The position numbers were made by a program, and so were the translations under genes. The notes beneath the pieces were generated by a model. It did not search any database. It saw only the letters and a program-made list of their open reading frames with translations, and had not been told where the DNA came from. A stretch of DNA of 15,850 nucleotides from Candidatus Iainarchaeum sp. (GTDB taxonomy: Archaea; Iainarchaeota; Iainarchaeia; Iainarchaeales; JAFCCW01): NCBI GenBank assembly GCA_017609985.1, contig JAFCCW010000018.1, forward strand, positions 1 to 15,850, read 5' to 3'. Of the stretch, positions 861 through 15,686 are shown piece after piece (position 1 is the first letter of the stretch; each line of letters begins with the position of its first letter).

Positions 861-907
861 AAGAAAATTAATTAACCTTCCTAACCCTTATTTTAACTGG
901 TTAAAAT
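861..907 (+). promoter_or_regulatory. Putative archaeal promoter of argS (BRE/TATA-like) with palindrome over the start
   Basis: AAGAAAA followed by TTAATTAA (868-875), about 30 nt before the ATG. ATTTTAAC-TG-GTTAAAAT at 890-907. No Shine-Dalgarno site. Confidence 0.45.
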
Positions 908-2624
908 GCTTGAATTCAAAGAAGAAATTTCAACAGCGGTTGAAAAAGCATTGAATGGAAAACTTAAGCGAAACGAAATAGTTAACCTTATGGAAGTGCC
1001 TCCGTCTCCTGAACTGGGCGATTTTGCTTTCCCTTGTTTCAAGCTCTCTGCTTTAATGAAAAAAGCACCAAACGTCATCGCTGTGGAACTATCCAAAAAA
1101 ATCGTTTTGCCGGAATGCGTTGAGAAGACAGAACCTGCTGGTCCATACATCAATTTTTTTATAACAAAGCAGTTCATCGCAAGCCAGGCTATAAAAAAGG
1201 TTTTGTCGCAAAAAGAAGAGTTTGGCCGCAGCTCGCTTGGCAACGGACAAAAAGTAATGGTTGAGTACAGTGCGCCGAACACAAACAAGCCTTTGCATTT
1301 AGGGCATTTGAGAAATAACTTTCTTGGCATGTCTGTTGCAAGAATTTTGCAAGCAAACGGCTTTGAGGTTGTAAAGGCAAACCTTGTCAATGACAGGGGC
1401 ATTCATATCTGCAAGAGCATGCTTGCCTACAAGCTGTTTGGCAAAGGCAAAACTCCTGAATCTGAAAACAAGAAGTCAGACCATTTTGTTGGCGACTACT
1501 ATGTAATGTACAATCAAAAAGTCAAGGAAAATTCTGATTTGGAAAAGCAAGCCTATGACATGCTGCAAAAATGGGAAAAAGGAGACAAGGAAACAATTGC
1601 ATTGTGGGAAAAAATGACTAAATGGGCAGTTGACGGCTTCAAACAAACCTATAAAAAGTTTGGAACAAAATTTGACACTTGGTTTTTTGAATCCAAGTTC
1701 TACGACAAGGCAAAGCCTGTTCTTGAGCTTGGAAAAGAAAAAGGTCTTTTCAAAGAAAACGACGAAGGTGCTTTAATGGCGCAGCTTGAAGAGCATGGCA
1801 TGCCAAACAAAACCGTTTTGAGAGCAGACGGAACAAGCATTTACATTACAAACGACTTGGCTTTAACCAAGCACAAGTTTGAGCACTTCAAGCTTAATGA
1901 GGCGTTTTGGGTTGTTGCCTCTGAACAAGACTTATACTTCAAGCAGCTTTTCAAGATATTTGAACTGGTTGGCTTTCCTTGGGCAAAAAATTGCAAACAC
2001 TTAAGCTATGGCATGGTAAACCTGCCTTCCGGCAAGATGAAAAGCAGAGAAGGAACAGTTGTTGACGCTGATGACTTACTTGCCGAGCTCGAAGGGCTTG
2101 CAAGAGAAAAAATTAAAAAGCGTGACGAGAAGATTGGAAAGAAAGAGCTTGGTGAAAGAAGCATGGCGATTGCCCTGGCTGCCATAAAGTTTCACTTGCT
2201 CAAGGTTGCAGCCAAAAAGGACTTGCTTTTCAATCCAAAGGAAAGCGTTTCTTTTGAGGGTGAAACAGGCCCTTACATCCAGTACACTCACGCTAGGGCA
2301 AAAAGCATTCTGAGAAAAGCAAAAGATGCTGCCAAACCTACAGGCTTCAAGAACCTTTCAAGCGCGGAAGAACAAAAGCTTGCAAAGCTGCTTGCCTCCT
2401 TTCCAAGCATTGTGGAAAAAAGCTTGCAACAGATGAGCCCTCATATAATATGCCAGTTTTTGATTGAAACAGCCGAAGCCTTTAACACGTTTTACCACAA
2501 ACACCGCGTAATTCAAGCCTCTGACAAAGTCCGCAGCGAAAGGCTTGCCTTAGTGAAAGCAACGGCACAGGTTTTGAAAAACGGGTTGTCTTTGCTTGAC
2601 ATTGAAGCAATAGAAGAAATGTAG
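906..2624 (+). CDS. argS: Arginine--tRNA ligase
   Basis: 572 aa; VEYSAPNTNKPLHLGHLRN (HIGH motif), GKMKSREG (KMSKS-like), FEGETGPYIQYTHARAKSIL, C-terminal DALR-type domain ending IEEM. Confidence 0.98.
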   Translation: MLEFKEEISTAVEKALNGKLKRNEIVNLMEVPPSPELGDFAFPCFKLSALMKKAPNVIAVELSKKIVLPECVEKTEPAGPYINFFITKQFIASQAIKKVLSQKEEFGRSSLGNGQKVMVEYSAPNTNKPLHLGHLRNNFLGMSVARILQANGFEVVKANLVNDRGIHICKSMLAYKLFGKGKTPESENKKSDHFVGDYYVMYNQKVKENSDLEKQAYDMLQKWEKGDKETIALWEKMTKWAVDGFKQTYKKFGTKFDTWFFESKFYDKAKPVLELGKEKGLFKENDEGALMAQLEEHGMPNKTVLRADGTSIYITNDLALTKHKFEHFKLNEAFWVVASEQDLYFKQLFKIFELVGFPWAKNCKHLSYGMVNLPSGKMKSREGTVVDADDLLAELEGLAREKIKKRDEKIGKKELGERSMAIALAAIKFHLLKVAAKKDLLFNPKESVSFEGETGPYIQYTHARAKSILRKAKDAAKPTGFKNLSSAEEQKLAKLLASFPSIVEKSLQQMSPHIICQFLIETAEAFNTFYHKHRVIQASDKVRSERLALVKATAQVLKNGLSLLDIEAIEEM

Positions 2625-2654: not shown

Positions 2655-3071
2655 TTACATTCTTCTTTTTCTTAACTCGGCTTGTGCTAGTGGTTGGTAG
2701 TGTTTGAATAGGTTGAGGTCTCTAAGCGCTTTGTGAAGCCTGATATCTATAGGGTTTTGAGAAGGCCCCCAATGACTGTGCGGGTCGAACCCTACAAAGT
2801 ATGGCTTTGCTTTTGCTTCGAGTTTGGCAATGTCTTGTGAAAGCCTGTAGTGCCTGTGCCCAAAGTCCCGAAGCTTTTCCTCGGCTTTTATGAAGCTGAA
2901 GTTTTTCATGTTTGTGTGGAATTCTTGAAACTGGTCTACAAGCTTCTGCGTTTTTTCAGCCAGGTTTTTGGAGTTTTTTTCCAGTTCCCTTCGAACAGCA
3001 ACTTTTTTCTTTAACGGCAGTCGCTTGAAGGTGGTTGAAAAGAAGCGTTTTTCAATTTTTGGACGTGGCAT
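2655..3071 (-). CDS. Hypothetical basic protein (ORFan, 138 aa)
   Basis: ATG start, TATA-like box about 22 nt upstream, fills the gap between argS and the ACT gene; no recognisable motif. Confidence 0.75.
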   Translation of the reverse strand: MPRPKIEKRFFSTTFKRLPLKKKVAVRRELEKNSKNLAEKTQKLVDQFQEFHTNMKNFSFIKAEEKLRDFGHRHYRLSQDIAKLEAKAKPYFVGFDPHSHWGPSQNPIDIRLHKALRDLNLFKHYQPLAQAELRKRRM

Positions 3072-3127: not shown

Positions 3128-3760
3128 TCAGAATTTCAGCACTTTCATCGCTTTTGCCAAGTCTTCTTCTTCTATTACAAACAAGGTGTCTGTCCAGCTT
3201 GACATTGTTTCCAAAATGTTGATTTCGTTTTCTCCAAACAGGGAGTAAAGGTATGCTACAATTCCTGATGTTTTCTCTATCTCCTTTGATGCCTTGAGGA
3301 GAATTTCAACCAAATCTTTTTTTTCATCAATTATCCCAAACTTGAATTTGTTCCTTATTTTTTTGCCGAACTTTTGGTCGGTAATCAAAGTAAAGGTTTT
3401 GCTTCCCTCTATAAGGTGAAAGGAGCCTTGTTCGCTTGTAATTTCTTTTGCCAAATCAATTATTCCTTCAAAGGAAACAGCTTGGTCCAAAATCGCCACC
3501 ATCATCTTGCTTTTTGTTTCCAAACGGCTTTTTTTGAGAATATCCATTATCTCATTTTCTTTGACCGCAGGTAATGCCATCTTTTCCGCATATCTCCTGC
3601 TTGCAACCAACACGGCCTCAAAATTTTTTAATCCCTCAAGTTTCAATTCTTCAATGATTTTTCTTGACAAAGCAGAATAATTAATCAGCCCCATCTTTAG
3701 GCAATCCTTAATACTTGGATGCGAAACAATGTATTCCTCTGTTGCTTTTGCTATGCTCAT
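3128..3760 (-). CDS. ACT-domain protein with N-terminal helical (HTH-like) domain; putative amino-acid-sensing regulator
   Basis: 210 aa; N-terminal DCLKMGLINYSALSRKI motif; C-terminal aspartokinase/CASTOR-type ACT signature TSGIVAYLYSLFGENEINILETMSSWTDTLFVIEEED; divergent from the arg operon. Confidence 0.85.
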   Translation of the reverse strand: MSIAKATEEYIVSHPSIKDCLKMGLINYSALSRKIIEELKLEGLKNFEAVLVASRRYAEKMALPAVKENEIMDILKKSRLETKSKMMVAILDQAVSFEGIIDLAKEITSEQGSFHLIEGSKTFTLITDQKFGKKIRNKFKFGIIDEKKDLVEILLKASKEIEKTSGIVAYLYSLFGENEINILETMSSWTDTLFVIEEEDLAKAMKVLKF

Positions 3761-3779
3761 AATAGGTTATTAAAGCGAC

Positions 3780-3800
3780 AAACATATAAATGTTTTATTT
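3780..3800 (-). promoter_or_regulatory. Putative TATA box of the ACT gene, inside a 6-4-6 palindrome
   Basis: Minus strand AAATAAAACA-TTTATATG about 22 nt before ATG 3760. AAACAT-ATAA-ATGTTT at 3780-3795. Confidence 0.5.
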
Positions 3801-3832
3801 AGGACATTTTTGGCTGAAATTGTCATAAATTT

Positions 3833-3850
3833 GCCAAAAAATATATAAAT
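3833..3850 (+). promoter_or_regulatory. Putative BRE/TATA promoter of the arg operon
   Basis: GCCAAAAAA-TATATAAAT (TATATAAA 3842-3849). SD-like GAGGT at 3926-3930 before ATG 3940. Confidence 0.55.
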
Positions 3851-3939
3851 AAAGCTTGCTCTAATTAGTTAGGTTAAAAGCAAACCTATTTTACGGATGC
3901 CCAACAAACCAAACCCTAGACATTAGAGGTAATGCAAAA

Positions 3940-5157
3940 ATGACAAAAGAGAAAATTGTTTTGGCCTTTTCAGGCGGACTGGACACATCGTTCTGTGTTC
4001 CATATTTGAAAGAAAAGTATAACGCAGACATAATCACAGCCATTGTTGACACAGGCGGCTTTTCAGAAAAAGAACTGAAAGAAATTGAAGAAAAATCAAA
4101 AAAGCTTGGCGCAATAAAACACTACACAGTTGACGGAAAAAGCAACGTGTTCAACGAATTTATAACCTATATAATCAAGGGAAATGTCTTAAGGGGAGGC
4201 GTCTATCCGCTAAGTGTTGCGGCCGAAAGGATTGTTCAAGCAGAGGAAATTGTAAAAATTGCCAAAAAAGAAAACGCAACTGCAATAGCCCATGGCTCAA
4301 CAGGAGCAGGAAACGACCAAGTAAGGTTTGACACAGCATTCAGTGTTCTTGCGCCAAACATAAAAATCATGACACCCATAAGGGTGCTTGGAATATCAAG
4401 GGAAGAGGAAACCAAATACCTAAACAAAAAAGGCTTTCCAGTTAAATCGGAAACAAAAAAATACTCAATAAACTCAGGGCTTTGGGGAACCACAATTGGC
4501 GGAGGAGAAACACACAACAGCTGGCAGGACATTCCAAACCAGGCATTTACCCAAACACAGCCAATAGAAAACACCCCTAATGACCCGGAAACGATTGAAA
4601 TAGAATTCAGCAAAGGAATTCCAATCGCGCTAAATGGAAAAAAAATGGCTGGAATAGAACTAGTCAAAAAACTGAACGAACTTGGAAACAAACATGGCAT
4701 AGGCCGAGGAATACACATCGGAGATACAATTATGGGAATCAAGGGAAGAATTGGCTTTGAGGCACCAGCGCCAATAATCCTAATCAAAGCACACAAAGAA
4801 CTTGAAAAATTGGTTTTAACCAAATGGCAACAGTTTTGGAAAGACCAACTTAGCAATTTTTTTGGAATGGCATTGCACGAAGCATTATACTTTGACCCAA
4901 TAACAACAGACATTAAGGCATTGATTGACTCAAGCCAGGAAAAAGTTTCAGGAAAAGTCAAAGCAAAACTCTTAAAGGGAAAGGCATCAATCACAGGATG
5001 CAAAAGCCCTTACTCAATGATGGACAAAGACATTGCAACATACGGCGAAGGCACCCTTCTCTGGAACGGGGAAGAAGCCAAAGGATTCTGCAAAATATAC
5101 GGAATTCAAAGCCTTCTGGCAAAAAAAGCAGCGGAAAAAGGAGCGAAACAAAAATGA
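3940..5157 (+). CDS. argG: Argininosuccinate synthase (copy 1)
   Basis: 405 aa; PP-loop LAFSGGLDTS, AHGSTGAGNDQVRFD, GIKGRIGFEAPA. Confidence 0.97.
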   Translation: MTKEKIVLAFSGGLDTSFCVPYLKEKYNADIITAIVDTGGFSEKELKEIEEKSKKLGAIKHYTVDGKSNVFNEFITYIIKGNVLRGGVYPLSVAAERIVQAEEIVKIAKKENATAIAHGSTGAGNDQVRFDTAFSVLAPNIKIMTPIRVLGISREEETKYLNKKGFPVKSETKKYSINSGLWGTTIGGGETHNSWQDIPNQAFTQTQPIENTPNDPETIEIEFSKGIPIALNGKKMAGIELVKKLNELGNKHGIGRGIHIGDTIMGIKGRIGFEAPAPIILIKAHKELEKLVLTKWQQFWKDQLSNFFGMALHEALYFDPITTDIKALIDSSQEKVSGKVKAKLLKGKASITGCKSPYSMMDKDIATYGEGTLLWNGEEAKGFCKIYGIQSLLAKKAAEKGAKQK

Positions 5158-6191
5158 AAATCAAAGTAGACAAAATATCCTCATCAACAAAAAACACAAA
5201 ACTTTCAACAATAGTGGAAGTATCCAAAAAAATTGATACAAAAGAAGGAAGCGTTATAATTGTTGAAGCCTTGGACGAAAACCTGGCTTACGGCAAAATT
5301 GAACTGCTTACAGGAAGAATGAGCAAAGTAATTGAAGGGGACATAATCGCAGGAACCCTCGGAGAAAGAAAAGCACTTAAAGGATACTCAGGCACAATTC
5401 CAAAAAAAGTCAAGCCAGGCGACAAGCTAAACCTGCTCAACCTTGGCGGCATAATTGGAAAACTTGTTTCAGGAAATCCCGAACTTGGAAAGCCAATCGA
5501 AGTAAAAGTCATAGGGCAGGCAATAATCTTTCCAGTGTTCGACCAAAGGATTGGAAAACCAGCCAACATAAAAGAAAACGCCATTGCCTGGAAAGACAAT
5601 CTGGAAAAAAGCGTTCCGCTAATAATCTTCTCAGCCTCCTGCATGGACACAGGCAAAACAACAGCCGCATGCGAGCTAATCAAAGGGCTTACAGCAAAAG
5701 GCTACAAGGTTGCCGCTACAAAACTTACAGGAGTCTCGCTTATGAGAGATACCCTAAACATGAAAGATTACGGCGCAGTCAAAGTCCTTGACTTCAACGA
5801 CGCAGGCATGGCCTCAACAACCGGCAAAAGCATTAACAGCCTTGCCAAAGGAATAATCTCAAAACTAACCAAAGAAAACATAGATTGCATTGTAATAGAA
5901 CTAGGAGACGGAATACTCGGAGACTACGGCGTCAAATCATTCCTGGAAGACAAGCAAATAATGAAATTCGCAAAAGCCCACATAATATGCGCAAACGACC
6001 AGGTTTCAGCATGGGGAGCCAAACAACTGTTCCAAAAATTTGGCTTAGAAATCACACTAATCTCCGGAAGAGTTACAGACAACACAGTTGGAACAGAATT
6101 TATCGAAAAAACACTAGGAATTCCAGCAGCAAACGGAATAACAAACCCAAAAAAAATTGTTTCAATAATTGAAAAGAAGGTGTTCAAATGA
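5154..6191 (+). CDS. DUF1611/DgcN-like P-loop protein; candidate glutamate N-acylating enzyme
   Basis: True start is probably ATG 5154 (ATGA overlap with the argG stop), 345 aa. Walker-A-like SASCMDTGKTT, KLTGVSLMRD, DFNDAG and VIELGDGILG. Its stop overlaps the argC ATG. The CDS is secure; the function is inferred. Confidence 0.8.
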   Translation: MKIKVDKISSSTKNTKLSTIVEVSKKIDTKEGSVIIVEALDENLAYGKIELLTGRMSKVIEGDIIAGTLGERKALKGYSGTIPKKVKPGDKLNLLNLGGIIGKLVSGNPELGKPIEVKVIGQAIIFPVFDQRIGKPANIKENAIAWKDNLEKSVPLIIFSASCMDTGKTTAACELIKGLTAKGYKVAATKLTGVSLMRDTLNMKDYGAVKVLDFNDAGMASTTGKSINSLAKGIISKLTKENIDCIVIELGDGILGDYGVKSFLEDKQIMKFAKAHIICANDQVSAWGAKQLFQKFGLEITLISGRVTDNTVGTEFIEKTLGIPAANGITNPKKIVSIIEKKVFK

Positions 6192-7207
6192 AGAAAAAAG
6201 TAGCAATAATTGGAGCAGGCGGATACGTCGGAAGCGAACTGCTGCGCTTGCTTTTATTCCACGACGGAGTTGAAGTAACCAAGGCAATAAGCCTTGAAAA
6301 CATAGGAGAAAACGTTGCAGTAGTGCACAAAAATCTGCAAAACCTCACAAGCCTGTGCTTTTCCAACGAACCAGCAGACAAAATAGCCAAAGAAGTCGAC
6401 CTGATTCTCTTTGCGCTGCCCCACTGCCTTGCAATGAACATGGTTCCAAAAGCAATTGGAAAAGCAAAAATAATTGACCTAAGTGCAGACTACAGAATAG
6501 AAAACCCAAAAACCTATGAGCAATTTTACAAAAAACACTCGTCGCCACAGCTAATCAAAGAATTCATATACGGGTTTCCTGAATTTAACAAAGAAGAAGT
6601 GAAAAAAGCCGAAAACATTGCCAATCCAGGCTGTTTTCCAACAGGCGCGCTTCTAGCCCTAATGCCGCTAGCAAAAGAAAATATGCTAACAGACCACGTG
6701 ATAGTTGACGCAAAAACTGGCTCAAGCGGTTCGGGAGTACACCCCGGACTTGGCACACACCATTCAGAAAGAGCAGAAGACTTCAAGGCATACAAAGTGC
6801 TAAAGCATCAGCATGGGCCAGAAATAGAACAAGAACTGAAAAAAGCAAACAAAAAAGAATTTGACTTCACATTCGTAACACACTCAGCACCAATGATTAG
6901 GGGAATTTTCATAACAGCCTATGTGTTCTTAGAAAAGGAAACCACAAAAGAAGAACTGGAAAAGATTTACAAAAAATACTACGAAAAAGAGCCATTCGTC
7001 AGAATTGTTGAGCAAGCAAGAAGCACTGTAGTAAAAGGAACAAACTTTTGCGACATAAGCATAGCATGCCAAGGCAAAAAAGCAGTGATAACAACAGCAG
7101 TCGACAATCTAGTGAAAGGAGCGGCAGGAACAGCAGTGCAAAACATGAACCTAATGCTTGGATTCGAAGAAACAAAGGGTTTGATGTTTCCAGGAACACA
7201 CCCCTAA
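6188..7207 (+). CDS. argC: N-acetyl(acyl)-gamma-glutamyl-phosphate reductase
   Basis: 339 aa; IIGAGGYVGSEL, ALPH, IDLSADYR, catalytic IANPGCFPTG, DNLVKGAAGTAVQNMN. Confidence 0.97.
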   Translation: MKKKVAIIGAGGYVGSELLRLLLFHDGVEVTKAISLENIGENVAVVHKNLQNLTSLCFSNEPADKIAKEVDLILFALPHCLAMNMVPKAIGKAKIIDLSADYRIENPKTYEQFYKKHSSPQLIKEFIYGFPEFNKEEVKKAENIANPGCFPTGALLALMPLAKENMLTDHVIVDAKTGSSGSGVHPGLGTHHSERAEDFKAYKVLKHQHGPEIEQELKKANKKEFDFTFVTHSAPMIRGIFITAYVFLEKETTKEELEKIYKKYYEKEPFVRIVEQARSTVVKGTNFCDISIACQGKKAVITTAVDNLVKGAAGTAVQNMNLMLGFEETKGLMFPGTHP

Positions 7208-7224
7208 AAAAAGAAGGTGAAAAA

Positions 7225-8397
7225 ATGAACAACGAAGAAATAATAAAACTGGAAGACAAATACCAACTGCAAACATACAAAAAATACCCAATCGCCTTGG
7301 TAAAAGGAAAAGGCTGCAAGGTATGGGATGCAGACGGAAAAGAATACACAGACTTCTACGGCGGTCACGCAGTAGCCCTAACAGGGCACTGCCATCCAAC
7401 AGTAGTCAAGGCAATCCAAGAACAAAGCCAAAAGCTGATATTCTACTCAAATGCAGTTTATAATGATGTGAGAGCAGAAGCAAGCCAGCAAATCATAAAA
7501 GTTTCACCAGAAGGCCTAACCAAAGTCTTTTTTTGCAACAGCGGAGCCGAAGCAAACGAAACAGCCCTAAAGATTGCAAGAAAATTCACAGGAAAAAACG
7601 AAATCATTGCAATGAAAAACGGCTTCCACGGCAGAACAATAGCAGCACTTAGCGTAACAGGAATAGACAAATACCGTGCACAATTCAAGCCACTGCTTGA
7701 ACACACAAAATTTGCCGAATTTGGCAACATTAAAAGCGTAAAAAAACTTGCAAGCGATAACACAGCAGCAATAATCCTAGAACCAGTTCAAAGCATGGCA
7801 GGAATAGTCACAGCAAACCAGCAATACTTCCAAGAACTAAAAGAATTCTGCTCAGAAAAAGGTATAGTGCTTATTTTTGACGAAATACAAACAGGATTTG
7901 GCAGAACAGGAAAAATGTTTGCAGCCCAATACTATGGCGTTACCCCAGACATTATTACCTGCGCCAAAGGAATAGCAAGCGGCTTTCCAATGGGCGCAAC
8001 AATTGTAAAAAACGAAATCGCAGAAACAATCTCATTTGGAGAACAAGGCTCAACATTCGGAGGCTCGCCACTAGCCTGTGCCGCAGCAAAAGCCTCGGTT
8101 GAAGCAATTCTGAAAGAAAACATGACAAAAAACGCAGACGAAATCGGCAAATACATCAAAGAAAAGCTAGGTGGACTAAAAGGAGTAAAAGAAATAAGAG
8201 GCCCAGGCCTGCTAAAAGGCATAAAGCTTGAAACAGAAGCAAAGCCAATTGTAGGAAAGCTTCTTGAAAAAGGATTCATAGTGGGAACAGCGGTTGTGGA
8301 AAATGACGTCATACGCCTGATGCCGCCCCTTACAATAGGAAAAAAAGAGGTTGATGAACTCTACGCAGTTCTGAAAGCCTTGCTGGAAGGAAACTAA
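7225..8397 (+). CDS. argD: Acetylornithine/succinylornithine aminotransferase (class III PLP)
   Basis: Start at ATG 7225 after AAGGTGA SD, 390 aa; CNSGAEANE, GFHGRT, EPVQ, DEIQTGFGRTG, PLP lysine in AKGIASG. Confidence 0.95.
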   Translation: MNNEEIIKLEDKYQLQTYKKYPIALVKGKGCKVWDADGKEYTDFYGGHAVALTGHCHPTVVKAIQEQSQKLIFYSNAVYNDVRAEASQQIIKVSPEGLTKVFFCNSGAEANETALKIARKFTGKNEIIAMKNGFHGRTIAALSVTGIDKYRAQFKPLLEHTKFAEFGNIKSVKKLASDNTAAIILEPVQSMAGIVTANQQYFQELKEFCSEKGIVLIFDEIQTGFGRTGKMFAAQYYGVTPDIITCAKGIASGFPMGATIVKNEIAETISFGEQGSTFGGSPLACAAAKASVEAILKENMTKNADEIGKYIKEKLGGLKGVKEIRGPGLLKGIKLETEAKPIVGKLLEKGFIVGTAVVENDVIRLMPPLTIGKKEVDELYAVLKALLEGN

Positions 8398-8400
8398 AAA

Positions 8401-9408
8401 ATGAGCCTAAAAAACAAAAACCTTGTTTCAACACAAGACTGGAAAAAAGAAGAACTAGACCAAGTGCTCGACCTAGCCATAAAACTGAAAAAAAAACCAT
8501 TCAACAAAAACCTGGCAAACAAAACCCTTTTTATGGTCTTCTTCAATCCATCACTTAGAACAAGATCCAGTTTCGAAACAGCAATGAACCAGTCCGGTGG
8601 ACACGCAGTTAACCTGGCAATAGGCCAAGGAATGTGGAAGCTTGAACACCAAGAAGGGACAGTAATGAATGGCGAATGCGCAGAACACATTAAAGACGCA
8701 GCAAAAGTTTTATCAAGATACGGCAACGCCATAGGCGTAAGATGCTTTCCAGAACTAAAAAACTGGAAAAAAGAAAAAAACGACTCGATTATCAAAGGAT
8801 TTGCCAAACACGCGTCCACGCCCGTAATAAACATGGAGTCAACGCTCTACCACCCCTGCCAAGCACTGGCAGACATCATGACAGTAAAAGAACACCTAGG
8901 CAAAACAAAAAAGAAAAAATTTGTTCTGGCATGGTGCTACCACCCAAAAGCATTGCCAACCGCAGTTCCAAACTCAGCAGCATTAATCGCAAGCAGATAT
9001 GGCATGGACACAACCATTGCCTGCCCAAAAGAATTCGAGCTAGACCCAAGCATAATCAAGTCAGTTAAAGAAAACTGCAAACTAAACGGAAGCAAAATGG
9101 AAATAGTGAACGACATGGACAAAGCACTCAAAGGAGCAGACATAGTTTATGCAAAAAGCTGGGGTTCAATAAACTACTATGGAAACTGGGACGAGGAAAA
9201 AATTCTTAGAAATAAGTTAAAAGACTGGAAAATAACAAAACAAAAAATGCAATTAACAAACAACGCAAAATTCATGCACTGCCTGCCAGTCAGAAGAAAC
9301 GTCGTAGTTGACGACGCTGTAATTGACAGCAAAAACAGTCTCGTTTACGATGAAGCAGAAAACAGGCTGCATGTACAAAAAGCGTTGCTAAACAGCATCA
9401 TGAGGTGA
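8401..9408 (+). CDS. argF: N-acylornithine carbamoyltransferase (ArgF', AOTCase/SOTCase family)
   Basis: 335 aa; FFNPSLRTR, EHIKD, INMES..HPCQ, WCYHPKALPTAVPNS, YAKSWG and HCLPVRRN are diagnostic of ArgF'. The DxxxSMG motif of canonical OTCase is absent. Confidence 0.95.
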   Translation: MSLKNKNLVSTQDWKKEELDQVLDLAIKLKKKPFNKNLANKTLFMVFFNPSLRTRSSFETAMNQSGGHAVNLAIGQGMWKLEHQEGTVMNGECAEHIKDAAKVLSRYGNAIGVRCFPELKNWKKEKNDSIIKGFAKHASTPVINMESTLYHPCQALADIMTVKEHLGKTKKKKFVLAWCYHPKALPTAVPNSAALIASRYGMDTTIACPKEFELDPSIIKSVKENCKLNGSKMEIVNDMDKALKGADIVYAKSWGSINYYGNWDEEKILRNKLKDWKITKQKMQLTNNAKFMHCLPVRRNVVVDDAVIDSKNSLVYDEAENRLHVQKALLNSIMR

Positions 9409-9416
9409 AAAAACAA

Positions 9417-10331
9417 ATGGAAAAAATCCCGTTTTTGATAGAAATACTTCCATACGTGCTAAAATTCAGAAAAACAACATTCGTAATCAAGCTAGGTGGA
9501 GACAACGCAAAAGAACAAAAAAAGCTGGAAGCTCTAGCCAAAGACATGACCTTGCTCCACAATCTTGGCGTAAACATCGTCATAGTCCACGGAGGCGGGC
9601 CACAAGCAAACGAACTGCTCAAAAAACTTGGCTACCCCCTCCAAAAAATAAACGGAAGAAGGATTACTGACAAGCAAACTCTGGAAGTGGCAAAAATGGT
9701 TTACGCAGGAAAAGTAAACACTGAGATAGTCGCAGCCCTGCAAAAAGCAGGAACTCATGCAGTAGGGCTTACAGGAGTAGACTGCAATCTTGTTTATGCA
9801 AAAAAAAGAGAACCCCAAAAAATCAAGAACAAAAAAACGGGAAAAACAGAAGAAATAGACTTTGGCTATGTAGGAGACATCAAAAAAATAAACCTTGAGG
9901 TAGTCCAAGACCTGCTTGAAAAAAACTGCGTGCCAGTAATAGCCTGTCTAGGGGCAGACAAAGACGGAACAATACTCAACATAAATGCAGACAACATTGC
10001 GGAAGAAATTTCCAAAGCACTGAAAGCCGAAAAATTTATCAGCGTAACCAATGTCCCAGGAATCCTTGAAAACAAAGAAGACAAAACAAGCACAATATCA
10101 TACCTAAACGTCTGCAATGCAAAAAAACTGCTGAAAAGCAAAAAAATCACAGACGGAATGCTGCCAAAACTAGAATCATGCATCGCAGTAGTCGAAGGCG
10201 GAGTAAAAAGAGCCCACATCATAGACATGACACAGCCACATAGCATCCTAATAGAAATCCTAACAAACCAAGGTAGTGGAACAATGATTGTGAGCAAAGA
10301 AGAAGAAGCAAAATACAAGCAAAAGGGGTAG
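9417..10331 (+). CDS. argB: Acetyl(acyl)glutamate kinase
   Basis: VIKLGG, VHGGGP, RITD, NINAD, GMLPKL. ATG 9417 follows a GAGGTGA SD; the alternative start is GTG 9405. No fused acetyltransferase domain. Confidence 0.96.
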   Translation: MEKIPFLIEILPYVLKFRKTTFVIKLGGDNAKEQKKLEALAKDMTLLHNLGVNIVIVHGGGPQANELLKKLGYPLQKINGRRITDKQTLEVAKMVYAGKVNTEIVAALQKAGTHAVGLTGVDCNLVYAKKREPQKIKNKKTGKTEEIDFGYVGDIKKINLEVVQDLLEKNCVPVIACLGADKDGTILNINADNIAEEISKALKAEKFISVTNVPGILENKEDKTSTISYLNVCNAKKLLKSKKITDGMLPKLESCIAVVEGGVKRAHIIDMTQPHSILIEILTNQGSGTMIVSKEEEAKYKQKG

Positions 10332-10339
10332 GCAAAAAA

Positions 10340-11380
10340 ATGGAAGCAAAAGAACTGCTAAAAAAGCTGGTGGAAATCCCAAGCATCTCAGGAAACGAGG
10401 CACAAATCAGCCAATTCGTTTTCGATCACCTGCAAGAAAACGGCTTGTCACCCAAACAATACAAAGACAACGTCTACTGTTCAATAGGAAAAGGCAAACA
10501 AATACTGCTCTTAAACAGCCACCTTGACACAGTACCAGTCTGCCCTGGCTGGAACCAAGATCCATTCAAACCAAAAGAAGCCAACGGAAAAATCTGCGGC
10601 TTGGGAGCAAACGACACAAAAGGCTCAATGACAGCAATGATCAACGCTTTCAAAAAGCTCGCTGACTCAAAAGACCTAAAAGGAAAAGTCTTTTTTGCAG
10701 CATCAACCCAAGAAGAAACAAACAACATCGGCATAAAGCAACTCACTGAAAAGATTCCCAAAGTTGACGCCGCAGTAATAGGCGAGCCAACAGAATTAAA
10801 CATTTGCACCGCAATGCGCGGTTTGGCAATACTAAAATTTGTTGCAAAAGGCAAAAGCGGGCACGCGTCCAGACCAAGCCAAGGAGTCAACGCCATATAC
10901 AAAGCAATTGAAGACATTAAAAAACTAAGATCGCTGGAATTTGAAAAAGCGCACAAGCTGCTTGGAAAGCCAACAATCACAACAACACTTATAAGCGGTG
11001 GCACAAAAAACAATGTGATTCCAGGCGAATGCGAGTTCACGACAGATGTGAGAACCACTCCAATTTATCCAAACAAGAAAATGATTGACCTGATAAAAGA
11101 AACAGCCACTTCTGAGGTTCAAGTGCTAAGCGATAGGTTGTGCCCCAAAGAAACAAGCGAAAGCGAAAAAATTGTTCTGGCAGCACAAAAAGCTTGTCCT
11201 GAAGGAAAACTTTTAGGCTTTCCCGCAATGTGCGACTGGGTATTCATCGACGCGCCAGGTATAATCTTCGGACCAGGAATAACAACCCAATCTCACACTC
11301 CAAACGAGTTCATCGAAATAAAGCAAGTTGAAAAAGCAGGCGAAATCTACCAAAAGATTGTGCATGAATTCTTCAAGTGA
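10340..11380 (+). CDS. argE: M20 family deacylase (ArgE/DapE-like; probable N-acylcitrulline/ornithine deacylase)
   Basis: 346 aa; metal-ligand motifs NSHLDTV, GANDTKG, QEE, IGEP, SHTPNE; operon context. Confidence 0.88.
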   Translation: MEAKELLKKLVEIPSISGNEAQISQFVFDHLQENGLSPKQYKDNVYCSIGKGKQILLLNSHLDTVPVCPGWNQDPFKPKEANGKICGLGANDTKGSMTAMINAFKKLADSKDLKGKVFFAASTQEETNNIGIKQLTEKIPKVDAAVIGEPTELNICTAMRGLAILKFVAKGKSGHASRPSQGVNAIYKAIEDIKKLRSLEFEKAHKLLGKPTITTTLISGGTKNNVIPGECEFTTDVRTTPIYPNKKMIDLIKETATSEVQVLSDRLCPKETSESEKIVLAAQKACPEGKLLGFPAMCDWVFIDAPGIIFGPGITTQSHTPNEFIEIKQVEKAGEIYQKIVHEFFK

Positions 11381-11386
11381 ATCAAA

Positions 11387-12733
11387 ATGAAGTTATGGCA
11401 AAAAAAGGGAACAACGCTTCACAAAGAAATCGAGCAATACACCGTAGGCAATGACCCATTCCTAGACCAAAAACTTGTCAAAGTTGACGCAATTGCATCC
11501 ATCGCACACGCTAGCATGCTTAACAAGATAAACATCCTAACAAAACAGGAACTCAAAGCACTGAAAAAAGAACTCTGCAACATAATAAAGCTTGACAAGA
11601 AAAACAAATTCAAAATAACCCTCAAAGACGAAGATGTTCACACAAAAATTGAAAACCACTTGACAAAAAAGCTTGGAAAACTTGGGAAAAAAATTCACAC
11701 AGGCAGAAGCAGAAACGACCAAGTAATAGTAGACACAAGACTATACTCTAAAGAAAAACTGCTGGGCATAGAAGAACAAGCCATAAAACTATGCCAGGCT
11801 TTAGCCAAGCAAAGCCAAAAAAACCAAAGCACTCCAATGCCTGGTTATACGCACATGCAAAAGGCAATGCCCTCATCAGTAGGCCTATGGCTAGGCAGCT
11901 TTGCCGAATCACTCTTAGATTACTTGGAATTGCTTGATGCAGCCTACAAGCTAAACAACCAAAATCCACTGGGCTCGGCAGCAGGCTACGGCGTTCCCCT
12001 AAACCTTGACAGAAATATGACAACAAAACTTTTGGGCTTTGCAAAAACCCAAAACAACATATTGTACGTGCAAAATAGCAGGGGAAAAATAGAACTTGCC
12101 ATCCTTAACGCTTTAACACAAATAATGCTTGATTTAAACAAACTGGCAACAGACCTTCTCTTGTTCACAATGCAAGAATTTCAGTTCTTTGAAATACCAG
12201 ACGAATTCTGCACCGGAAGCAGCATAATGCCCCACAAAAAAAACAAAGACGTGCTTGAATTGATTAGGGCAAACTATGGCATAATGCTTGGTTACTCCAC
12301 CCAAATCGCAAACATCATAAGTTCACTGCCATCAGGCTATAACAGGGACTTGCAGCTTACAAAAGAGCCACTAATGGCGGGACTTGAACTCGCAAACTCA
12401 ACACTCTCAATATGCACTCTTGTAATTTCAAAACTGGAAGTCAACAAAAAAAACCTGCTGAAAGCATGCACACCAGAGCTTTTTGCCACAGGAAAAGCAT
12501 TTGAACTGGCTAAAAAAGGAATTCCGTTCAGAGAAGCCTATAAGACAATAAAAAATACAAACGAATGGCACAAATCCGACGCAACCAAAAACATCATGCA
12601 AAAAAAATACGCTGGTGCAACAGGAAACCTTGGCCTGCCAAAACTAGAAAAGGAAATTGCCAAAAAGAAAAAAATAATTTCAAAAAAACAACACCAGCTA
12701 AACTCTACCCTAAACAAGCTTCTTAGACAATAG
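11387..12733 (+). CDS. argH: Argininosuccinate lyase
   Basis: 448 aa; IHTGRSRNDQ, MPGYTHMQKA, GSSIMPHKKN, LPSGYNRDLQ, GIPFREAY. No C-terminal ArgA fusion. Confidence 0.97.
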   Translation: MKLWQKKGTTLHKEIEQYTVGNDPFLDQKLVKVDAIASIAHASMLNKINILTKQELKALKKELCNIIKLDKKNKFKITLKDEDVHTKIENHLTKKLGKLGKKIHTGRSRNDQVIVDTRLYSKEKLLGIEEQAIKLCQALAKQSQKNQSTPMPGYTHMQKAMPSSVGLWLGSFAESLLDYLELLDAAYKLNNQNPLGSAAGYGVPLNLDRNMTTKLLGFAKTQNNILYVQNSRGKIELAILNALTQIMLDLNKLATDLLLFTMQEFQFFEIPDEFCTGSSIMPHKKNKDVLELIRANYGIMLGYSTQIANIISSLPSGYNRDLQLTKEPLMAGLELANSTLSICTLVISKLEVNKKNLLKACTPELFATGKAFELAKKGIPFREAYKTIKNTNEWHKSDATKNIMQKKYAGATGNLGLPKLEKEIAKKKKIISKKQHQLNSTLNKLLRQ

Positions 12734-12779: not shown

Positions 12780-13550
12780 ATGAAACCAAAAACAAGATCG
12801 AAAAAGCCAACAGACCTTTACAACTGGGGCAAAAAAGACATCTTTCTCAGCCAAGCCATCAAAAAGATTGGCATAACACCAAAAATCGTGACAGAAATCG
12901 CGCCAGGGCAAAACCCACACTTCTTCGCAGAAATCGCAAGAAACTTTCCAAGCCTTAAAAAATACAGGCTCGTAGACCAGAAAAAAACCCAATTCAAACA
13001 GTACGCCAAACACAAAGGCGTAAAAGAAGTCGAAAAACACAAAAACAAAATAGACGAAATAACACAACACTACTTTGCAACAAAAAAACTCCCATCAGAC
13101 CTGATAATAAGCCACCACGGCTTTGGCCCATGGATGTTCAACCACAGAACCAACCTTGTTAAAGTAGCAGGAGACCTCAAAATCGGAGGCGGCATAATAT
13201 TAAGGCAAAACTCAAAAGACTTCTCCCATTACATCAAACCAGATGCCCTAAAACTCTTAGCCAAAGCAGGATTCAAAGTTACGCTGTACGCAGACACGTT
13301 TCAAGGACTGAAAAAGATTTCGTTCAACGACCTAAAAAAAATAAACAAAAGCAAGCTGGTAAAAGGACAAGTTAGCCTCATAGCCAAAAAAGAAAGACAG
13401 CTTTCAGGCAAACAAAGAGGGCAACTGCTTTTGGAAGCCATGAACGCAGACATTCGCGACAAAAGATGGAAAGACCCAACAGCAGAAGTCGAAAAAAGAA
13501 AACTGCTTGAAGCAAAAGCAAAGCTGGAAAAAGCCCTTAGAAGAATGTAG
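12780..13550 (+). CDS. Hypothetical basic protein, possible degenerate class I SAM-methyltransferase fold
   Basis: 256 aa; VTEIAPGQ, YRLVD, DLIISH and LKIGGGIIL appear in Rossmann MTase order. Confidence 0.7.
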   Translation: MKPKTRSKKPTDLYNWGKKDIFLSQAIKKIGITPKIVTEIAPGQNPHFFAEIARNFPSLKKYRLVDQKKTQFKQYAKHKGVKEVEKHKNKIDEITQHYFATKKLPSDLIISHHGFGPWMFNHRTNLVKVAGDLKIGGGIILRQNSKDFSHYIKPDALKLLAKAGFKVTLYADTFQGLKKISFNDLKKINKSKLVKGQVSLIAKKERQLSGKQRGQLLLEAMNADIRDKRWKDPTAEVEKRKLLEAKAKLEKALRRM

Positions 13551-13551
13551 C

Positions 13552-14241
13552 TTATATCCTTCTTATAATTCTTCTTTTCTTCGCTCTCTTAACAAACTTT
13601 GAGAATTTTTGGCCCTTTTTTTCCCACAACTCCACCAAATCCATTGCATCATAGCCAGAAATGTCCCTTCCACGAATTTTCTTCTTTCTGCTTAACGCAA
13701 GCTGCAATTCGCTTATTGCTTTAGTCGTGTTAAATCCCGCTTTAATTGCAGCAAAAGCCAACGCCTCTCCACCCCTATGCGCTAAATCGGTTAAATGAGG
13801 ATCAGACTCTCCCCCTTTAGGATAACACACATCATAATAGCTTTTTCTAAACTGCTTTGTCAAGCTTTCCACCTTCTTTTTGTCCCTTTTCCTCAACGCA
13901 AGTTTGAATTGCTCCAGCCTGTCAAAAGCTTCACCTATCTTTAAATCCGGCCTAATCTTTAAACGTTTGTTAATATAAGAATTCATGACATGCGCTGCCT
14001 CTGCCACCACAACATAAGGATCTGGCTTTGAAATATAAACCAAATAGCCTCTTCCACCATACTCTAAAAGAGGAACCACCGTACCACCTTCCACTCTGGC
14101 AAATATGCTAGCGGACACGCCAAACTTTTTAGCATCACTGGTTTTGTTAATCAAAACACACCTAGGTTTTGTCTTAACCTGAAGTGTCTTCATCAACCTC
14201 TGCAAATCCCTTTCAAACAATTCCTTAGTTTTATCAACCAT
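13552..14241 (-). CDS. Hypothetical basic protein (229 aa)
   Basis: ATG start with upstream AGAAAAAA-TTTTAAAT; convergent with 12780..13550, 1-nt gap. Confidence 0.75.
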   Translation of the reverse strand: MVDKTKELFERDLQRLMKTLQVKTKPRCVLINKTSDAKKFGVSASIFARVEGGTVVPLLEYGGRGYLVYISKPDPYVVVAEAAHVMNSYINKRLKIRPDLKIGEAFDRLEQFKLALRKRDKKKVESLTKQFRKSYYDVCYPKGGESDPHLTDLAHRGGEALAFAAIKAGFNTTKAISELQLALSRKKKIRGRDISGYDAMDLVELWEKKGQKFSKFVKRAKKRRIIRRI

Positions 14242-14489: not shown

Positions 14490-15686
14490 ATGAAAAACAC
14501 AAAAAACAAAATAATACTGGCATTTTCAGGAGGTCTGGATACTTCCTTCGCAGTTTTACACCTTAAAGAAAAAGGATACGACGTTATCACTTTAACAGTT
14601 GACACTGGCGGACTAGGCAAAAAAAAGATTAAAGAAATTAAAAACAGAAGCAAACAGCTTGGCGCAAAAAAACATTACTTTATCGACGCCAAAAAAGAAA
14701 TCTTTGACGAAATAATCTCCTACCTAATAAAAGCAAACGGCCTATACCAAGGAATCTACCCCAACATGTGCGCTGACAGATACACCATCGCAAAACACTT
14801 GGTAAAAACAGCAAAAAAAGAAAACACAAAACTTGTTGCACACGGCTGCACAGGAGCAGGAAACGACCAAATAAGAATTGACATCACCTGCAATTGCCTA
14901 AACCCAAAACTTGAAATAATTGCGCCAATAAGAGACCTTGGAATCACAAGGCCGGAAGAAATAAAATACTTAAAAGAAAAAGGCTTCAAAGTCTCAAAAG
15001 AAACAAAAAAATACACGATAAACGAAAACATTTTCGGAAGAACAATCTCTGGCTCAGAAATAGACAAAAACAAGGAACCAAGCGAACAAGCATGGGTTCT
15101 AACAAAAGAAACAAAGCAAAAACCACAATACTTTGAAATAGAATTCAACAAAGGCATACCAGTTGCACTAAACGGAGAAAAAATGCACGGAGCCAACATA
15201 CTAAAAAAGCTAAACAAGGAAGTCGGCGCCCACGGATACGGAAGAGGCTTGTATATAGAAGACGAAACAATTGGAATAAAAGGCATCCAAGCATTTGAAG
15301 CACCAGGGCTGCTTCTTTTAATAGAAGCCCACAAAGCACTAGAAAGACTAACCCTAACATGGAACCAACTCTCAACCAAACAATTCCTAGACAACACCTG
15401 GGCAAGCATGGCATACAGAGGGCTATTGGCAGACCCAGTAATAGCAGACATTCAAGCATTCTTAAACAAAAACCAGGAAATGGTTTCAGGCAAAGTCAAA
15501 ATAAAAGTCCACCAAAAAACAGCCTTTCCCACCGAAGTCCACAGCCCAAACTCGCTGATAAGAGAAGACATAGCAAAATACGCCCAAAAAGCAACCTGGA
15601 CAGGAAAAGAAGCACAAGCCTTCATAAAACTATACTCACTACAACAAAAAATCGCGGCAAGCAGAAAAAAAGAAAAAAAACAATAA
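14490..15686 (+). CDS. argG: Argininosuccinate synthase family protein (copy 2, divergent)
   Basis: Start at ATG 14490 after AGGTGA SD, 398 aa; LAFSGGLDTS, AHGCTGAGNDQIRID, YTINEN, FEAPG. Confidence 0.93.
   Translation: MKNTKNKIILAFSGGLDTSFAVLHLKEKGYDVITLTVDTGGLGKKKIKEIKNRSKQLGAKKHYFIDAKKEIFDEIISYLIKANGLYQGIYPNMCADRYTIAKHLVKTAKKENTKLVAHGCTGAGNDQIRIDITCNCLNPKLEIIAPIRDLGITRPEEIKYLKEKGFKVSKETKKYTINENIFGRTISGSEIDKNKEPSEQAWVLTKETKQKPQYFEIEFNKGIPVALNGEKMHGANILKKLNKEVGAHGYGRGLYIEDETIGIKGIQAFEAPGLLLLIEAHKALERLTLTWNQLSTKQFLDNTWASMAYRGLLADPVIADIQAFLNKNQEMVSGKVKIKVHQKTAFPTEVHSPNSLIREDIAKYAQKATWTGKEAQAFIKLYSLQQKIAASRKKEKKQ

Follow-up and report, generated by a model that had tools for sequence, protein, structure and literature searches.

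TrpY of Methanothermobacter and the LysM and Lrp proteins of Sulfolobus are amino-acid-responsive one-component regulators of divergent biosynthetic promoters, acting from sites beside the BRE and TATA elements (PMC6737238, PMC2995911; these papers and those cited below are used in excerpt, and statements about them hold for the excerpted text). Lrp-type activators bind just upstream of the BRE at a constrained position, and the proposal for LysM is that its amino acid inactivates it (PMC2995911). Tar of Thermococcus kodakarensis (TK0271), annotated as 'hypothetical protein, conserved' in Table S1, is an activator of amino-acid operons that its authors relate to MarR-type HTH proteins, with erythrose 4-phosphate as effector (PMC6737238). 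ArgR/AhrC exerts arginine control over arg genes through paired palindromes. In the arginine sensor CASTOR1, the carboxyl group of arginine rests on G279-I280-V281 and the amino group on S111-V112, the guanidinium contacts T300, F301, F303 and D304, and D304A abolishes binding (PMC5020642, PMC5187391). We found no described answer to how the costly arginine pathway is controlled in archaea without ArgR, and nothing on DUF7523, the present family or its box, in a literature search that had subscription journals and bioRxiv supplements outside its coverage.

The locus described here lies in a window of 15,850 nt (the whole stretch of DNA that was analyzed) and is arranged as follows:

3128..3760, minus strand: regulator gene, 210 aa, DUF7523 plus tandem ACT, arginine-linked clade (ORF list of the window, Pfam, AF2 model, tree)
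3926..3930, plus strand: Shine-Dalgarno-like GAGGT, 9 bp 5' of argG
3940..12733, plus strand: predicted target operon argG - P-loop protein - argC - argD - argF' - argB - argE-like - argH (ORFs, Pfam/NCBIfam)

The operon gene argF' encodes N-acetylornithine carbamoyltransferase and argE-like a deacylase. The regulator ORF and argG, which starts at 3940 (+), stand head-to-head across a 179-bp spacer (3761-3939), confirming the divergent layout that an earlier note on this DNA had reported. The gene had also been placed between argS and argG; its argG side is direct, but a 138-aa ORF (2655-3071, minus strand) separates it from argS, which points towards it. The earlier note's remark that argR is absent from the window held for the genome as well, since no ArgR domain was found in either (host genome of 1.16 Mb, 86.6% complete). 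In a profile search of 61 genomes from the order, the host included, none had the ArgR C-terminal domain, against 8 of 14 control genomes; the N-terminal domain gave no match in the host genome. A three-codon ORF (window 3932-3943) begins 1 bp past the GAGGT and ends in a stop that shares bases with the start codon of argG. The genome encodes two arginyl-tRNA synthetases (window 906-2624 and contig C8:29528-31222, 57% identical) and two argininosuccinate synthases (window 3940-5157 and 14490-15686, 49% identical), and four window ORFs had no convincing Pfam or NCBIfam match (2655-3071, 12780-13550, 13552-14241 and 106-411).

The AF2 model of the regulator (pLDDT 95.7, from 137 sequences) consists of four N-terminal helices, a linker helix and tandem ACT domains, giving two parts:

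3575..3760, minus strand: N-terminal four-helix domain, residues 1-62, predicted to bind DNA (AF2 model, conservation; weak fold match)
3131..3532, minus strand: aspartate-kinase-type ACT pair, residues 77-210, predicted ligand-binding and dimerization module (AF2 model, 5yei_C Z 14.0)

Residues 73-210 of the model superposed on 5yei_C with a Z score of 14.0 (rmsd 2.1, 131 residues aligned), and the best Foldseek E value of the ACT part against aspartate kinase regulatory domains was 1.5e-8. The earlier note's reading of an ACT protein therefore stands firmly by structure, although the Pfam ACT matches (residues 162-208; ACT_7 23 bits, cut-off 27) remained below threshold. Its suggestion of a special closeness to CASTOR did not survive the comparison, as CASTOR1/2 ranked after the aspartate kinases (Z 7.6-7.8), and ArgR (1b4a) matched only in a common fold arrangement (Z 6.4, rmsd 8.4). 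The regulator superposes on the aspartate kinase ACT pair (5yei, 3c1m and the 2dtj beta subunit) and keeps the Gly-Ile and Asn-Ile motifs of its amino-acid site. Unlike those enzymes, it lacks a kinase domain (no AA_kinase match; NCBIfam aspartate kinase 17.6 bits against a cut-off of 402) and carries an extra, conserved four-helix N-terminal domain; the database label 'aspartate kinase' is a misnomer for it. With CASTOR1 it shares the ACT class, at a much weaker level than with the aspartate kinases (profile E about 0.8), and the Gly-to-Asp spacing of the arginine site; however, it has two ACT domains instead of four, so that an arginine site would form between subunits, and it would act on DNA, in contrast to the action of CASTOR1 on GATOR2. 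No Lrp HTH or RAM domain matched in Pfam at E<=0.1, in the protein or in the N-terminal fragments of the family, and the regulator differs from TrpY and LysM further in having no wing strands and in its tandem aspartate-kinase-type ACT domains. The comparison with TrpY is one of domain make-up. No Arg_repressor domain of Pfam matched the protein, which is thus separated from ArgR/AhrC, as it is by a different box.

The N-terminal residues 2-70 passed the gathering score of DUF7523 (PF24367; 28.5 bits, cut-off 27), a family of unknown function whose model covers only this part of the regulator well. DUF7523 also matched 100 of 119 N-terminal fragments of the family at E<=0.1, and the winged-helix model WH_PARP12 matched 36 of the 119 weakly (best E 1.7e-4). 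Modelled alone (pLDDT 83), the domain was all-helical, with helices at 15-22, 28-39 and 44-61 and no wing strands. The earlier note had expected an HTH, and structure prediction did not reveal a recognizable one: Foldseek gave nothing at E<=0.001, homeodomain, Myb-like and DEK entries reached only Z 4.6-4.8, and a structural atlas search of residues 1-68 returned only unnamed clusters, below 0.9. The best structural match (Z 6.3) was a 30S ribosomal protein chain, 9fhl_S, probably eS17, as 8hkx_S17E aligns over the same range. Given weak winged-helix matches and no confident fold match among the families listed, an HTH-like nature of the modelled domain is possible. N27, S29, A49 and R56 occurred in 94/94 members of the arginine-linked clade defined below and R33 in 93/94, all within the N-terminal domain; the INYSALxR motif spans residues 26-33.

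Run against 1.84 billion representatives, a profile of the family retrieved 2024 clusters (50% identity) at E<=0.001. Named homologues came from Diapherotrites/Iainarchaeia and Nanoarchaeota, which makes the host most likely a DPANN archaeon; a homologue was present in 23 of 61 related genomes, and genomes held up to five paralogues (five in G069); none was found in viral contigs. Longer forms occurred as well: one protein of 477 aa (P0240) has two matched stretches, a possible tandem duplication, and another of 476 aa (P0260) joins a Cache-type sensor domain to the ACT part. Two loci (L062, L072) come from bacterial-titled records and some among L035-L106 from records titled 'uncultured Methanosarcinales archaeon'; these show the archaeal layout of TATA plus box and Woesearchaeota-like homologues, so mis-binning or mislabelling is possible.

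The association of homologues with amino-acid biosynthesis genes, on which the earlier note had made its proposal depend, was found at every close locus. With the host genome excluded, an arg gene lies opposite the regulator at each of the 14 closest loci of relatives (E<1e-28): argG in seven, argJ in two, argF in two and an argB-type kinase, matched below the curated cut-off, in three. We extended the survey by tblastn to the best 80 of 265 confirmed GTDB loci, in which L089 repeats L006. An arg or car gene lay within 6 kb in 55 of these 80 further loci, 54 of them on the divergent side, and none was detected in 25; on a stricter list (carA/B, argD, argE and argA uncounted) the figure was 49/80, and argS was found at 16/80. 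For comparison, 57 of 1094 host-genome ORFs have an arg/car neighbour. Fourteen unlabelled facing genes were scanned and gave three N-acetylglutamate-synthase-type NAT domains, one GNAT and ten uninformative results. Co-occurrence followed the same trend, counted among genomes that are kin and not independent samples. Close homologues were present in 11 of the 14 genomes (of 61) in which argG was found; a further one (G051) has a shorter homologue form beside argG, and in the remaining two (G018, 67% complete, and G056) no close homologue was found. Among genomes without an argG match, 4 of 47 have a close homologue, in all four facing argB or argJ. In the phylum of G067 (Thermoplasmatales), 61 of 151 genomes gave a match, and an arg/car-like gene lay within 1.5 kb at 18 of 29 new top loci, in 8 of these 18 by an argD-like aminotransferase only.

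The host genome carries a second copy of the regulator (C8:27453-28079, 45% identical to the first) that faces an acetyltransferase passing the PRK07757 cut-off, which we take to be a short ArgA. Paralogue and ArgA-like gene (C8:27453-28639) lie under the same operator as the window locus, and the second argS is 1.4 kb from this copy. Since the paralogue faces an ArgA-like acetyltransferase, the host may possess, in addition to the P-loop protein of the operon (window 5154-6191), a first-step enzyme of the conventional type.

A quick tree was built from 91 rows, with L031-L110 thinned to every third row and the broken L019 left out; its 42 arg-linked rows all fell on one branch (SH-aLRT 95-96). 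A second branch contains three loci facing dapB-dapA (L027, L030, L124), one facing lysW-homocitrate synthase (L126) and four other members without a lysine gene within 1.5 kb. L017 and L019 face ilvE-leuA and leuB-leuC, and in the large branch to which they belong, the genes opposite most members are unrelated or unknown. By eye, no arg genes were seen at 30 distant Nanoarchaeota loci (L130-L159), and the one Bacteroidota plasmid homologue (22% identity) has none nearby, so the arginine link is a property of the clade and not of the family. In the large Nanoarchaeota branch (L130-L159, with G069 and G120) facing genes are highly variable and mostly unknown; by eye, these loci often lie near GAPDH-, D-2-hydroxyacid-dehydrogenase- or thioredoxin-reductase-like genes. 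Two shorter relatives of 198 aa (L018, L022) adjoin argG and have a different pocket hairpin (C-R-E-D); L018 has no box of the arginine type obvious to the eye.

Conservation within the arginine clade (n=94) pointed to a candidate ligand pocket:

3185..3211, minus strand: clade-specific pocket hairpin, residues 184-192 (S187 94/94, W189 85/94, D191 93/94; Arg-clade alignment)

E162 (91 members), G166 (93) and N181 (94) are similarly conserved, and the members with Tyr at position 189 number eight. Outside the clade, Trp at 189 occurs in no other clade and position 191 is mostly Glu, with Asp in 4/6 of the L020 group and 2/15 of another group; because an acid at 191 is family-wide, D191 is not diagnostic alone. 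G166-I167-V168 precedes D191 by 25 residues, as G279 precedes D304 in CASTOR1 (PMC5020642), a match of spacing and not of superposition, and in a sequence alignment to a CASTOR-like bacterial protein the Asp lies one column off. By this comparison, the arginine backbone would lie on G166-I167 and the partner subunit's N181-I182, and the guanidinium on D191 and the 187-190 hairpin.

The spacer between the two genes contains the elements listed below:

3784..3790, minus strand: predicted regulator TATA box, which would give a nearly leaderless mRNA (31-bp box-to-start distance recurs in homologues)
3791..3806, strandless: box 1, main palindrome TGTYY-N6-RRACA, abutting the regulator TATA and covering its BRE position (matrix, spacer comparison)
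3811..3815, plus strand: degenerate half-site at offset +20, TGTYY consensus in homologues (spacer comparison)
3821..3836, strandless: box 2, a palindrome weaker than box 1, at offset +30, its end 4-6 bp short of the operon TATA (spacer comparison)
3841..3851, plus strand: predicted arg operon TATA box at offset +50 from box 1 (pattern)

The two predicted TATA-like elements point outwards and are 50 bp apart, in line with the back-to-back boxes of the earlier note. Spacers of homologues share TGTYY-N6-RRACA, then half-sites at +20 and +30, RG[GT]CR at +41 and finally the target TATA. We built a 35-bp matrix from 14 relatives, leaving out the host genome and the TATA, and scanned both strands of the 1.16 Mb. 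Position 3791 of the window ranked first (28.7 bits) and C8:28110 second (27.5), followed by a site at 21.0 bits; among 1094 host upstream regions, the four that share the two regulator spacers led, and the next scored 14.9. At 22 bits, a threshold chosen after this background was known, 55 of the 79 independent loci (from the best 80 of 265) carry a site and the other 24 do not, and no site appeared in 237 shuffles. In 54 of the 55 the site is on the target strand and upstream of the regulator, at a distance of no more than 300 bp in 31. Across 61 sites TGT and GACA hardly vary, a partly circular count since the matrix chose them. The regulator-side TATA is flush with the box in 33/61 sites; a target TATA was found by pattern in only 31/61, at +50/51 in 20 of the 31. 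The left arm becomes TGTCY, a cleaner palindrome, where no promoter points the other way, and the box stays with the regulator's own promoter even when other genes intervene. An exact box also occupies the divergent argC-argG spacer in 5/5 Thermoplasmatota genomes (hand-chosen for near-complete assemblies), at 5-6 bp from a TATA-like stretch that is directed at argC. The regulator's own promoter lies outside this spacer: the distance to the regulator is 4.6-8 kb in four of the genomes and about 480 kb in G417.

Taken alone, the 16-bp pattern is no commoner across whole genomes than its reversed control (25-32 and 10-35 matches per genome, respectively), and weight is therefore given to position and to the longer matrix only; with one match in about 50 kb, any one spacer has a chance of about 1% of containing one. 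We considered a generic promoter artefact and rejected it, as 280 TATA-anchored host upstream regions showed no TGT/ACA bias and only the two regulator spacers scored high among the 1094. The matrix scan found no box at argS (701-915), the second argG or the second argS, and none was seen by eye before the host carA. At 860-910, a stretch at argS that the earlier note had named for a DNA-binding check, the best score was below zero. A TATA-abutting box-like site of 16 bp (C23:47707, minus strand, 16.6 bits), without downstream half-sites, lies close to two GNAT-like ORFs and immediately downstream of a gene resembling that of TBP. The box shares its GGACA/TGTCC half-site with the TGGACA-N8-TGTCCA motif of Tar (PMC6737238); there the half-sites are oppositely oriented, and the comparison with Tar covers its motif and published description.

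Operator type changed with protein clade, in patterns chosen after inspection and counted on the same sequences. The arginine-type box lay within 200 bp upstream in 45/94 Arg-clade members against 0/47 others, TGTTA-N6-TAACA (one mismatch) in 5/8 of the lysine group against 0/133 others, and a TGTCA-like half-site lay 4-7 bp before the TATA in 24/33 of the large branch (shuffled mean 0.6). This tracking is the best evidence that the protein itself binds DNA.

Neighbourhood, co-occurrence, clade-specific operator and pocket residues, all read from sequence, strongly support a predicted dedicated, ArgR-independent transcription factor for the arginine genes. We propose that it is a one-component, arginine-sensing and autorepressing regulator that would activate the arg genes when arginine is scarce, a reading to which we assign a probability of roughly 0.5. 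The earlier note's idea of an arginine-responsive regulator independent of ArgR thus keeps its link to the arg genes and loses its site at argS. That the protein is a DNA-binding regulator of arg genes is very probable and, if it is, arginine is likely to be the effector; for its sign of action we lean modestly towards activation over repression. In the proposed mechanism, the N-terminal helical domains would bind the TGTYY-N6-RRACA palindromes, one dimer per 16-bp box. Box 1 covers the BRE position of the regulator promoter, which points to autorepression: a dimer flush against this TATA would block TFB there. In target promoters, about 5 bp separate the end of the last half-site from the TATA. 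Archaeal activators typically occupy this constrained position, and the arginine-free form would accordingly assist in recruiting TFB/TBP; arginine bound between the ACT domains would switch activation off.

The possible alternative that shares protein, operator and ligand with this scheme is TrpY-like repression, in which the protein would always occupy box 1 and arginine, as co-repressor, would spread it cooperatively over +20, +30 and +41 and thereby keep TFB off the arg promoter. The neighbourhood and motif evidence holds for it in full, the succession of a strong box and weaker half-sites phased by 10 bp into the BRE position suits it, and TrpY acts in this manner on overlapping divergent promoters (PMC6737238). 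However, steric blocking would need no register so fixed, whereas two are seen, flush at the regulator's own TATA (33/61 sites, as above) and about 5 bp short of the TATA at targets, and a similar half-site-to-TATA register recurs in the 24/33 of the distant clade. Target sites leave free the A-rich positions -5/-4 of generic host promoters; repression would explain equally well that the BRE position shares its initial bases with the last half-site and that the TATA boxes of targets look consensus-like. We therefore favour activation by the arginine-free form only slightly over co-repression; either would lower arg expression when arginine is plentiful. An arg regulator that senses a pathway intermediate (citrulline, ornithine, N-acyl-ornithine or argininosuccinate) or several basic amino acids is unlikely. 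Its precedent is Tar, which responds to erythrose 4-phosphate and not to end products (PMC6737238), and the pocket was compared with CASTOR1 by spacing only; against it, pocket residues are constant across hosts with argJ, argA-like and N-acetylornithine carbamoyltransferase routes, and the sister clade adjoins both the DAP (dapB/dapA) and the LysW lysine routes, which points to end-product sensing.

Two further readings would take the protein off the DNA. As a stand-alone allosteric subunit (compare aspartate kinase beta) it would convey arginine feedback to ArgA, ArgB or ArgJ while another factor bound the palindrome. In its favour, the C-terminal two thirds fold like the regulatory part of aspartate kinase, a first-step enzyme is often encoded opposite and the N-terminal domain has no confident fold match, yet we judge this very unlikely because the box travels with the gene's own promoter across intervening genes, its type changes with the protein clade while the facing gene varies, and the extra N-terminal domain has invariant Arg, Asn and Ser. 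Binding to an arg mRNA leader, to which the ribosomal best match of the N-terminal domain (9fhl_S, Z 6.3) might point, is hardly credible: the element lies between outward-facing TATA boxes, would be transcribed in neither direction and so must act as DNA, and it is a double-strand palindrome.

The regulator of activation and autorepression proposed here is predicted to work like TrpY, LysM or ArgR, yet falls outside ArgR, Lrp, CASTOR and aspartate kinase by domain criteria. At the level of the family, we give slightly better than even odds to the view that DUF7523-ACT proteins form a widespread, unrecognized transcription factor family whose DNA-binding domain belongs to none of the known HTH classes, and that its paralogous clades use TGT-N10-ACA-type operators with clade-specific inner bases and different ligands; the present clade, with its CASTOR1-like pocket, would be the missing dedicated arginine regulator of DPANN archaea and Thermoplasmatota. 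The analysis defines a testable set that consists of one named protein, an operator of 16 bp, a regulon and the residues predicted for the pocket. If the proposal is true, DUF7523 gains a function and thousands of 'aspartate kinase' labels would be corrected; small-genome DPANN archaea would keep dedicated biosynthetic control, by means of a compact arginine-sensing module that is a prokaryotic counterpart of the CASTOR1 pocket. Sister clades that adjoin genes for lysine and leucine hint at an entire code of operators and ligands.
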